DNA of 64,000 nucleotides from assembly GCF_030013205.1 (NCBI RefSeq), contig NZ_CP122648.1; one strand, written 5' to 3'. Source of the stretch: Escherichia coli (GTDB taxonomy: Bacteria > Pseudomonadota > Gammaproteobacteria > Enterobacterales > Enterobacteriaceae). Positions 15,001 to 18,000 of this stretch are shown piece after piece. Numbering within the stretch: position 1 is the first letter of the stretch; every line of letters begins with the position of its first letter. Position numbers: made by a program.

Positions 15001-18000
15001 TACTGGTGAGTGCGTTACGCCAGGCCGTGAACTGGGCAAAGGTGGCGAAGGCGCGGTTTATGATATCGAGGAGTTTGCCGATAGCGTCGCCAAGATTTAT
15101 CACACGCCGCCACCCGCCTTAAAACAGGACAAACTTGCCTTTATGGCTGCGACAGCTGACGCACAGTTGCTGAATTATGTCGCCTGGCCGCAGGCAACGC
15201 TTCACGGTGGACGAGGCGGAAAAGTTATTGGTTTTATGATGCCAAAAGTTTCTGGTAAAGAACCGATTCATATGATCTATAGCCCGGCACATCGTCGTCA
15301 ACGTTACCCTCATTGTGCGTGGGATTTTCTACTCTATGTTGCGCGCAATATTGCTTCATCTTTTGCTACGGTTCACGAGCACGGGCATGTCGTGGGTGAC
15401 GTAAACCAGAACAGCTTTATGGTAGGCCGTGACAGCAAAGTGGTGTTGATTGATAGCGACTCCTTTCAGATTAACGCCAATGGCACGCTGCATTTATGCG
15501 AAGTCGGCGTGTCGCATTTTACGCCGCCAGAGCTGCAAACATTGCCATCATTTGTCGGTTTTGAACGTACCGCGAATCACGATAATTTTGGCCTTGCGTT
15601 GCTGATTTTTCACGTCTTGTTTGGTGGGCGGCATCCTTATTCCGGTGTACCGCTTATCTCTGATGCGGGTAATGCGCTGGAGACGGATATTGCCCATTTC
15701 CGTTATGCCTACGCGTCAGATAATCAGCGACGTGGTTTAAAACCGCCGCCACGATCGATTCCGCTGTCGATGTTACCGGGCGATGTTGAAGCCATGTTTC
15801 AGCAGGCATTCACGGAAAGTGGCGTGGCAACCGGGCGTCCGACGGCAAAAGCGTGGGTAGCGGCACTTGATTTACTACGCCAACAGTTAAAGAAATGTAC
15901 CGTTTCGGCAATGCATGTTTACCCCGCTCATTTGACTGACTGCCCGTGGTGTGCGCTGGATAATCAAGGCGTTATCTATTTTATTGATCTCGGCGAAGAG
16001 GTCATTACCACCGGCGGGAATTTTGTGCTGGCGAAAGTCTGGGCGATGGTGATGGCGTCAGTAGCACCGCCAGCATTGCAATTGCCATTACCCGATCATT
16101 TCCAGGCTGCTGGCAGGCCGCTTCCTTTAGGCCTGTTACGGCGCGAATACATCATTCTGATTGAGATCGCACTGTCAGCGTTATCGCTGTTGCTTTGCGG
16201 CCTTCAGGCAGAACCGCGTTATATCATTTTGGTTCCCATGCTGGCGGCTATCTGGATTATTGGCAGCCTGACAAGCAAAGCGTACAAAGCAGAAATCCAG
16301 CAACGCCGTGAGGCATTTAATCGCGCGAAAATGGACTATGACCATTTAGTCAGCCAGATCCAACAGTTGGGCGGGCTGGAAGGTTTTATCGCCAAACGGA
16401 CGATGCTCGAAAAAATGAAGGACGAAATTCTTGGGTTACCGGAAGAAGAAAAACGTGCTCTGGCAGCACTTCAGGACACCGCAAGGGAACGGCAGAAGCA
16501 GAAGTTTCTGGAGGGATTTTTTATTGATGTTGCCTCTATTCCCGGCGTTGGCCCTGCGCGTAAAGCTGCGTTACGGTCCTTTGGTATTGAAACGGCGGCA
16601 GACGTTACCCGACGGAGCGTTAAGCAAGTGAAAGGTTTTGGTGATCATCTGACCCAGGCGGTTATCGACTGGAAAGCGAGTTGCGAACGCCGTTTTGTTT
16701 TCAGGCCGAACGAAGCGGTAACGCCTGCAGACAGACAAGCGGTAATGGCAAAAATGGCCGCCAAACGACATCGGCTGGAATCGGCGCTGACTGTCGGTGC
16801 GACAGAGTTGCAGCGATTCCGCCTTCATGCTCCAGCACGGACCATGCCGTTGATGGAACCGTTACGTCAGGCGGCAGAAAAACTGGCTCAGGCGCAGGCT
16901 GATTTAAGCCGCTGCTGAGCCATTTTTCAATTAACGAAACACCACTTCCGCCCAGCGTGCCAGCCCGGCGGTGACGGAGCCAAAGTCATCGCCGCCTGCA
17001 ATCGGAATGCCCGGCAACTGTTCTGCCAGCGCTTTTTTAATCAGCGGCGAACGGGCGCTACCGCCGGTCAGGTAGATGACATCCGGTTTTTCCTGGGCGT
17101 TATCCAGGGCCAGTTGCACCTGTTCCAGAATCCGCATCAGTGGCTGGTTGAGGGCGCTTTCCAGCCCTTGCTGGCTAATCAGCGTAGCCAGTTCATCGCT
17201 GATAAACGGCAGTGAGGCGCGGGTTTCCGCTACGCTTGAAAGCGCAATTTTGCTCTCTTCTGCGCTACGTACCAGGCGATAGCTTAAACGCTGACGCCAG
17301 ACTTTCTGTAACAGGGCCACTTTTTCCGGTTCGCGGGCATCGCGTACCAGATCGTTAAGCAGACGACCGTTGGCACTACTGTAGAAATCACTTTGCGCAG
17401 GTACGTCGTTGATGGCAACCGCATTCCACCACGGCAGAATCGGCAGGGCGATGCCTTTTTCGGTTTCGCCCCCCATGCCCAGTAACGGCATCAGGTTTTT
17501 AAACGCCAGTGCGATATCCAGATCGTTACCGCCAATACGGCAACCACTGTGACCCAGCAGGCTGGCTTCACGATCGAGACGCGAACGCCACTGCGGCCCC
17601 ATCAGCAGCAATGAACAGTCAGTCGTACCACCGCCGATATCCACCACCAGCACCCGTTTTTCTTCCTGCAAAGTCGCTTCGTAATCCAGCCCTGCCGCTA
17701 CCGGCTCGTACTGGAATACCACATCCTTAAACCCGGCACGCTTCGCCGCGCGTTCCAGAATCCCCTGCGCCTGGGTGTTTGCTTCATCGCCGCCAAGCCC
17801 CTGGAAGTTGATCGGGCGACCAATCACTGCCTGAGTAATTGCCTCCGGCAGTTGAGCCTGCGCCTGCTGGCGAATGTGCAACATCATTGCGCAGACCAGA
17901 TCCTCAAACAGCGCTACCTGCTGCGGTTTTAAGCCGCTGGCACCGAGGAACGATTTTGGTGATTTCACAAACCACACTTCTTCTGGATCATCAATGTACT

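Follow-up and report, generated by a model that had tools for sequence, protein, structure and literature searches.

We analysed a window of 64,000 nucleotides (nt) of Escherichia coli contig NZ_CP122648.1 (assembly GCF_030013205.1), in which the gene yegI encodes a membrane-anchored serine/threonine (Ser/Thr) kinase. Residues 516-575 of YegI (nt 16514..16693, forward strand, as are all yegI features below) are predicted, with very high confidence, to form a canonical five-helix (HhH)2 domain, i.e. two helix-hairpin-helix (HhH) motifs joined by a linker helix. The HhH domain of the YegI family has been present in public annotation for years; this reading of the fold is therefore correct but not new. 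What is added here is a structural description, namely the placement of the domain at the tip of a stalk, its conserved basic residues, and the family variants with a third transmembrane (TM) segment. E. coli has few Hanks-type Ser/Thr kinases, of which YegI is one; it resides in the inner membrane, is active and phosphorylates itself (bioRxiv 10.1101/819920). The gene starts at 14978 according to RefSeq (14978..16918, 646 residues), and its longest open reading frame (ORF) begins with a GTG codon at 14969 (14969-16918, 649 codons). Residue numbers used here are those of the 649-codon ORF; subtraction of three gives the numbering of RefSeq and of the published YegI papers.

The initial annotation had placed two HhH-like motifs at 16511-16650 of the window, downstream of a pair of TM segments, and had quoted one peptide for each. 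In the yegI frame, this span translates to EGFFIDVASIPGVGPARKAALRSFGIETAADVTRRSVKQVKGFGDH (residues 515-560). Both peptides were found in YegI, FIDVASIPGVGPARKAALRSFGIE at residues 518-541 and VKQVKGFGDHLTQAVIDW at residues 551-568. The first lies inside the span, but the second reaches nt 16672, 22 nt past its end. The pattern h-x-x-h-x-G-h-G-x-x-x-A assigned to both motifs held in part: the core h-x-x-h-x-G-h-G fits twice, but not the final A, the fourth residue after the hairpin being K and T in the two motifs, respectively. Motif 1 (nt 16529-16579, residues 521-537) contains the hairpin G526-V527-G528 within the sequence IPGVG (residues 524-528), and motif 2 (nt 16619-16672, residues 551-568) contains G556-F557-G558 within KGFG (residues 555-558), with the linker helix ETAADV between them. 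The paired G-h-G hairpins required of an (HhH)2 domain are thus present. Such motifs could also arise by chance in a helical or coiled-coil tail that has no HhH fold, and certain observations fit this explanation: the loose G-h-G pattern alone occurred at least twice in 23% of shuffled YegI sequences, the flanks of the region truly are long helices, and the Pfam match described below is weak and partial. Two core motifs at most 40 residues apart were found in 0.5% of the YegI shuffles.

The tail of YegI (residues 438-649, 212 residues) was modelled by AlphaFold2 (AF2) with 60 homologues. The model has a mean predicted local distance difference test (pLDDT) score of 95.6 and consists of helices 439-468 and 470-515, a compact part 516-583 and a long helix 586-648. 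When the whole tail was submitted to Foldseek, elongated antiparallel coiled coils were returned (dynein stalk, SMC, MukB elbow, HP0958, PI3K p85; E>0.2), along with local matches to the N-terminal domains of Rad51/Dmc1. Because this search was swamped by the long coiled coils, the sub-domain (residues 509-587, 79 residues) was modelled and searched apart from the whole tail. The resulting model (pLDDT 90.4) shows five helices in the classical (HhH)2 arrangement, in the order short helix, IPGVG hairpin, helix PARKAALRSF, linker helix TAAD, helix RRSVKQ, KGFG hairpin and long helix GDHLTQAVIDWKASCER. Its Foldseek neighbours, with probabilities up to 0.99, were the RNA polymerase (RNAP) alpha C-terminal domain (alpha-CTD), Rad51, Dmc1, Hjm helicase, Dpo4, RadA, ComEA, DisA and BAF. 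The region is thus modelled as an HhH-linker-HhH five-helix fold, and not as the plain coiled coil that the initial annotation had named as the outcome contrary to its claim. The (HhH)2-like module it had suggested is supported by profiles, by the AF2 models and by Foldseek neighbours that are established (HhH)2 domains.

Profile searches led to the same kind of domain. Pfam family HHH_5 matched residues 518-554 of whole YegI (independent E-value, i-E, 7.6e-4; 20.3 bits) and scored slightly better with the tail alone (i-E 1.5e-4; 22.6 bits). Of 60 homologues, 4 matched HHH_5 with E<=1e-3, and the number rose to 38 with E<=0.1. The spacer leading from the linker helix to the second hairpin is 2-3 residues shorter in YegI than in the HHH_5 consensus, a possible reason for the Pfam alignment ending at model position 37. 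Weaker Pfam matches in YegI were to IMS_HHH_1, IMS_HHH and Cdd1, and three NCBIfam models of DNA polymerase IV (Pol IV) aligned weakly with residues 509-558, the model side of these alignments corresponding approximately to the HhH-containing thumb of Pol IV. A profile of the family HhH region, compared with PDB sequences, matched archaeal L32e (E 1e-3), Pol IV (E 9e-3), NAD-dependent DNA ligase and REV1, each in its HhH region, and by phmmer the YegI region aligned with the HhH domain of Pyrococcus furiosus Rad51. The profile signal is weak yet consistent, pointing at the sequence level always to the same kind of domain. A hidden Markov model search had been proposed from the outset as a check, with a lack of any HhH hit counting against the module; matches to HhH families (HHH_5, IMS_HHH_1, HhH regions of Pol IV) were found.

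A different likeness, to clostridial toxins (the CROP repeats of TcdA and TcsH), was considered and rejected. PDB sequence matches to these repeats reached E 2.6e-9 over nt 16652-16714, corresponding to residues 562-582, TQAVIDWKASCERRFVFRPNE, and centred on the motif W...[KR][KRF]F.FNP..A. They were judged to be an artefact of summation over repeats, each stretch on its own having i-E >30, and no toxin appeared in the fold searches. The matched segment AVIDWKASCERRFVFRPNEAV was modelled as the end of a helix followed by an extended strand, which also speaks against a likeness to the toxins.

A search with the tail profile returned 2,862 clusters (50% identity) at E<=1e-3, 868 of them at E<=1e-30. 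Conservation was calculated from 136 aligned family representatives, and architectures were counted in the top 144 representatives. The hairpins proved to be highly conserved (G528 in 94%, G556 in 97%, F557 and G558 each in 96%), as were W568, E573 and F576. Basic residues were conserved as well, both next to hairpin 1, where position 531 is K or R in 90% and position 532 is basic in 73% of representatives, and on the last helix, at position 569 (96%) and positions 574/575 (52-65%). In YegI the core carries a net charge of +4; the median of the family is +3, and its 5-95% interval runs from 0 to +6. A net positive core with conserved basic residues is the pattern expected of a module that binds the phosphate backbone. 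With motifs conserved at 94-97% over the 136 representatives, a confident five-helix model and independent annotation pipelines calling the same domain, the chance explanation introduced above is very improbable; the model, the fold matches and the conservation together bring it close to refutation.

A kinase domain was recognisable in 87 of the top 144 representatives, many of the remaining ones being metagenomic fragments. In the commonest form (74/87), the protein has about 650 residues, and one or two TM segments can be detected ahead of the module. In three relatives (P0200, P0228 and P0232), the module was joined to a Cys-rich N-terminal region, with neither a kinase domain nor a preceding TM hairpin. 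These kinase-less proteins indicate that the module is mobile and not strictly bound to a kinase. Decayed genes were also encountered: in a Sterolibacteriaceae metagenome-assembled genome (locus L001) the kinase gene of a decayed triad (see below) was split by IS66/IS21-type insertions, and in locus L002 the PP2C and kinase genes of another decayed triad were broken up into separate ORFs, probably through frameshifts. Many of the 'tail-only' proteins in databases are probably fragments of this sort or products of contig ends. A scan of IMG/VR viral contigs with the tail alignment found no relatives.

As for prior annotation, names given by the Joint Genome Institute (JGI) to homologues read 'DNA-binding helix-hairpin-helix protein with protein kinase domain', and the homologues bearing this name matched the YegI tail with E-values of 1e-41 to 1e-65 and 44-59% identity over the tail. 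NCBI uses the name 'helix-hairpin-helix domain-containing protein' for fragments and for some full-length E. coli YegI proteins of 646 residues. YegI, which combines a Hanks-type kinase and a C-terminal HhH domain in one polypeptide homologous to the named members, presumably belongs to COG4248, in agreement with the names of its homologues and of the NCBI records. The COG name for the kinase and HhH family is quoted in PMC3861447; it asserts DNA binding without an experiment, and neither the placement at a stalk tip nor the variants with a third TM segment are part of the COG annotation. The HhH domain is not mentioned in the experimental preprint on YegI (10.1101/819920), and our literature search found no paper joining YegI, TerY or PP2C with HhH.

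The domain lies behind a TM hairpin (nt 16148..16279), composed according to hydropathy of TM1 (residues 394-412) and TM2 (residues 418-437). In published PhoA-LacZ fusions, residues 340, 390, 432, 439 and 646 were cytoplasmic and residue 414 periplasmic (10.1101/819920). The TM pair noticed ahead of the motifs is thus confirmed by both hydropathy peaks and published topology, with both termini in the cytoplasm, and from the latter it follows that the HhH region is cytoplasmic, on the same side of the membrane as the kinase domain. Between TM2 and the domain runs an outward arm (nt 16283..16513, residues 439-515) made of helices 439-468 and 470-515 (AF2 pLDDT 93-98), which are separated by a kink at a conserved G-x-EGF. 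Behind the domain, a single long helix forms the return arm in the AF2 model (nt 16724..16912, residues 586-648). In YegI the arms measure about 75-80 residues each; in the family, the arm from TM2 to the domain has approximately 76-95 residues, and that from the domain to the C-terminus has 74-79 residues in 90% of members. It appears that the (HhH)2 domain sits at the tip of an antiparallel stalk, which starts right after TM2 and would extend about 10 nm into the cytoplasm. Two sites of in-vitro autophosphorylation, Ser602 and Ser644 in RefSeq numbering (S605 and S647 of the ORF; 10.1101/819920), both map to the return arm, which indicates that the kinase domain can reach its own tail or that of a partner.

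Variation at the C-terminus bears on the same arrangement. About a tenth of representatives (14/144, ~10%) extend beyond the C-terminus of YegI, and a downstream TM helix was detected in all 14, in most of them immediately after the return helix. Several relatives carry extracytoplasmic TPR repeats or an SH3-like or TonB_C domain beyond this helix. Two further proteins, P0216 and P0229, have no TM hairpin and show the order kinase, module, single TM segment, extracytoplasmic part. The extended relatives include P0173, P0179, P0181, P0191, P0206, P0230, P0172, P0141 and P0200, together with genes at 1865-4885 of locus L004 and 209-2395 of locus L009. The module thus borders the membrane at either end, in keeping with an antiparallel stalk that has two arms and bears the (HhH)2 domain at its distal tip. 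In the extended relatives, the module may be held at the membrane by both of its ends and may pass on signals from the periplasm.

A model for the function of the domain can be proposed from the motifs, the predicted fold, the conservation and the conserved operon, all established here, and from the cytoplasmic location, which is taken from the literature. The model assumes that the G-h-G hairpins and the basic residues R531, K532, K569 and R574/R575 would contact duplex nucleic acid at its sugar-phosphate backbone, irrespective of sequence, in the manner of other (HhH)2 domains. DNA close to the inner membrane would then concentrate, orient or cluster the membrane-anchored kinase, and clustering would favour the trans-autophosphorylation that activates YegI. 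Active YegI would in turn feed a switch composed of the vWA protein YegL, the PP2C phosphatase PphC and the kinase itself. Autophosphorylation of YegI follows second-order kinetics of the dimer type (10.1101/819920). We infer both the binding and its coupling to the kinase; although this is the reading with the best support, we consider it about evenly balanced whether the (HhH)2 tip indeed binds duplex nucleic acid non-specifically and localises or clusters the kinase on membrane-proximal DNA, promoting autophosphorylation. If the domain binds DNA, membrane-near DNA becomes a concrete hypothesis for the missing signal of YegI. An experimental link of YegI to DNA comes from overproduction: YegI, and separately YegL, raises endogenous DNA damage when overproduced, YegI belonging to the class with at least 5-fold DNA damage and the induced mutations of the YegL clone being sequence-verified (Xia et al., bioRxiv 10.1101/354589). 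This phenotype is the only such link and is circumstantial.

The second-order kinetics and the phosphorylation of the tail itself at S602 and S644 would equally fit the main alternative role, in which the (HhH)2 domain serves to contact other proteins or to dimerise, as do SAM domains, NusA AR2 with RNAP alpha-CTD, or ERCC1-XPF, and nucleic acid is not involved. From the stalk tip, it would then bring two YegI molecules together for trans-autophosphorylation, or attract a partner or substrate (YegL, for example). A surface stretch, LRSFGIETAADV, is 88-100% conserved, beyond the needs of non-specific backbone binding, but a linker of the GIETAADV type belongs to the HHH_5 consensus itself. Furthermore, the domain carries a net positive charge and has conserved basic residues at the first hairpin and along the last helix, while the protein-binding AR domains of NusA are acidic. 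SAM domains and NusA AR1/AR2 are protein-interaction modules that lack paired G-h-G hairpins, and the Pfam scan of YegI returned no SAM family, so that membership among SAM domains is not supported. The best sequence and fold matches were DNA-binding domains. Taken together, we consider a purely protein-binding role possible, though rather unlikely.

The ligand might also be RNA instead of DNA, i.e. structured RNA or nascent transcripts at the membrane, which would tie YegI to RNA metabolism. The neighbours of the domain include HhH/SAM-like ribosomal proteins that contact rRNA (L32e and mitoribosomal mL85, mS41 and ms34), and CoCoNuT systems with a TerY-P module are predicted to target RNA (PMC10542128). 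The strain-specific neighbour YegJ has been reported to interact with RNase E (PMC13232886), but this strain, like most E. coli lineages, lacks yegJ. In general, duplex DNA is the ligand of most (HhH)2 domains that have paired G-h-G hairpins, and we find RNA improbable here.

Several observations weigh against the proposed (HhH)2 domain acting as a DNA-binding stalk tip. As for the domain itself, the HHH_5 match is weak, at 20-23 bits, and extends over positions 1-37 only of the 57 in the model, the precomputed Pfam tables of homologues list no HhH family, and the Foldseek E-values of the sub-domain are just 0.08-1, the domain being small. As for its placement, the geometry of the stalk was derived from secondary structure, arm lengths and fold matches, not from coordinates. 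As for the predicted binding of DNA or RNA, the net charge of the core spans -2 to +7 across the family, and the DNA-damage phenotype may be an indirect result of membrane-protein overproduction. Moreover, the yegI locus is scarcely expressed in laboratory conditions.

The genomic context of yegI was examined next to the domain itself. On the forward strand, yegI is the last gene of an operon that starts with yegL (13564..14223; annotated in RefSeq as 'vWA domain-containing protein') and continues with pphC (yegK; 14220..14981), encoding the PP2C-type Ser/Thr phosphatase PphC. The adjacency of the three genes agrees with the definition of the TerY-P triad, whose architecture is vWA, PP2C and Ser/Thr kinase (PMC4978471, PMC10542128). 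The order vWA, PP2C, kinase-HhH was kept in all five intact distant loci (L003, L004, L005, L007 and L008) and was still recognisable in the two decayed ones, L001 and L002; PP2C_2 genes were located upstream of the kinase in every relative locus examined. At 14969-14981, pphC shares 4 nt with yegI at the annotated ATG, an arrangement suggestive of translational coupling. According to the RefSeq annotation, yegJ, which in K-12 interrupts the operon between pphC and yegI, is missing here.

YegI shares a further feature with TerY-P kinases. Between its kinase domain and the TM hairpin, a pattern search detected a C-x5-H-x8-C-P-W-C motif, CTVSAMHVYPAHLTDCPWC (nt 15896..15952, residues 310-328), which recurs in 62 of 65 full-length representatives of the family. 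Judging from its sequence, this CHCC motif is probably a zinc knuckle or ribbon such as has been described for TerY-P kinases; it is not discussed in the YegI preprint (10.1101/819920). The TerY-P kinase of defence systems ends in an OB fold and that of the CoCoNuT version in a zinc ribbon, both interpreted by the authors as nucleic-acid binding (PMC10542128). Should the YegI domain bind DNA, vWA-PP2C-kinase triads could be seen as nucleic-acid-triggered switches with interchangeable HhH, OB and zinc-ribbon sensors.

One version of the TerY-P triad protects against T7-like phages (PMC7699616); phage protection by yegLKI was not reported in the literature searched. Of the PADLOC models for TerY-P, none matched PphC or YegI; YegI matched only the generic kinase models PD-T4-6 and MkoA, and YegL matched the TerY model at only E 0.0092 and 13.5 bits. 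Of 5,426 complete E. coli genomes, 5,416 contained a match to bases 13500-17000 of the window, with an identity of >=99% in 18. Since the PADLOC TerY-P models miss PphC and YegI, the locus belongs to the core of E. coli and no relatives were found in IMG/VR, we refrain from classing it as a defence system. The stalk-mounted (HhH)2 domain could nevertheless be imagined as a cytoplasmic sensor, kept at a constant distance of about 10 nm from the inner membrane, of membrane-adjacent DNA, such as an entering phage or conjugative genome, with DNA-driven clustering switching on YegI. We regard this as a speculative and distinctly unlikely extension of the model; if it were true, the near-universal yegL-pphC-yegI locus would be a TerY-P-like immune or stress alarm in which HhH replaces the OB fold or zinc ribbon.

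Downstream of yegI and convergent with it lies yegD on the minus strand (ORF 16931-18346; the RefSeq version is shorter and ends at 18283), which encodes an Hsp70-like protein. A conserved linkage of the triad to yegD was considered and found unsupported, as a tblastn search with YegD against five related loci detected a generic Hsp70 in one only. Between mdtA and yegL (approximately 12627-13343, forward strand), the RefSeq annotation of an identical strain lists three tandem genes of 18-19 codons each, ibsA and two paralogues, which code for type I toxins of the Ibs family.

Compared with known systems, YegI is closest to the COG4248-type proteins with kinase and HhH, which form the same family and do not differ from it structurally. 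TerY-P systems share with yegLKI the order of three genes, the CHCC motif after the kinase domain and a putative nucleic-acid-binding C-terminal domain. They differ in that YegI has a TM hairpin, a stalk and (HhH)2 where TerY-P kinases have an OB fold or zinc ribbon; the zinc-ribbon-like CHCC motif is there in YegI, and the stalk-HhH module is additional. Furthermore, yegLKI is a core locus and not part of a variable island. In Rad51, RadA and Dmc1, which represent HHH_5, the domain is an N-terminal appendage on a recombinase ATPase, whereas YegI, a kinase, carries it downstream of a TM hairpin and flanked by two long helices. ComEA, one of the Foldseek matches, is likewise membrane-anchored, and its (HhH)2 binds double-stranded DNA non-specifically; its HhH lies outside the cytoplasm and is not joined to an enzyme, while that of YegI is cytoplasmic. 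Finally, DisA resembles YegI in combining a signalling enzyme, a helical spacer and a C-terminal HhH domain, which in DisA binds DNA, the state of the DNA being able to modulate its output. As DisA is a soluble octameric diadenylate cyclase with no detectable homology to YegI outside the HhH fold, the two represent an analogy of design.

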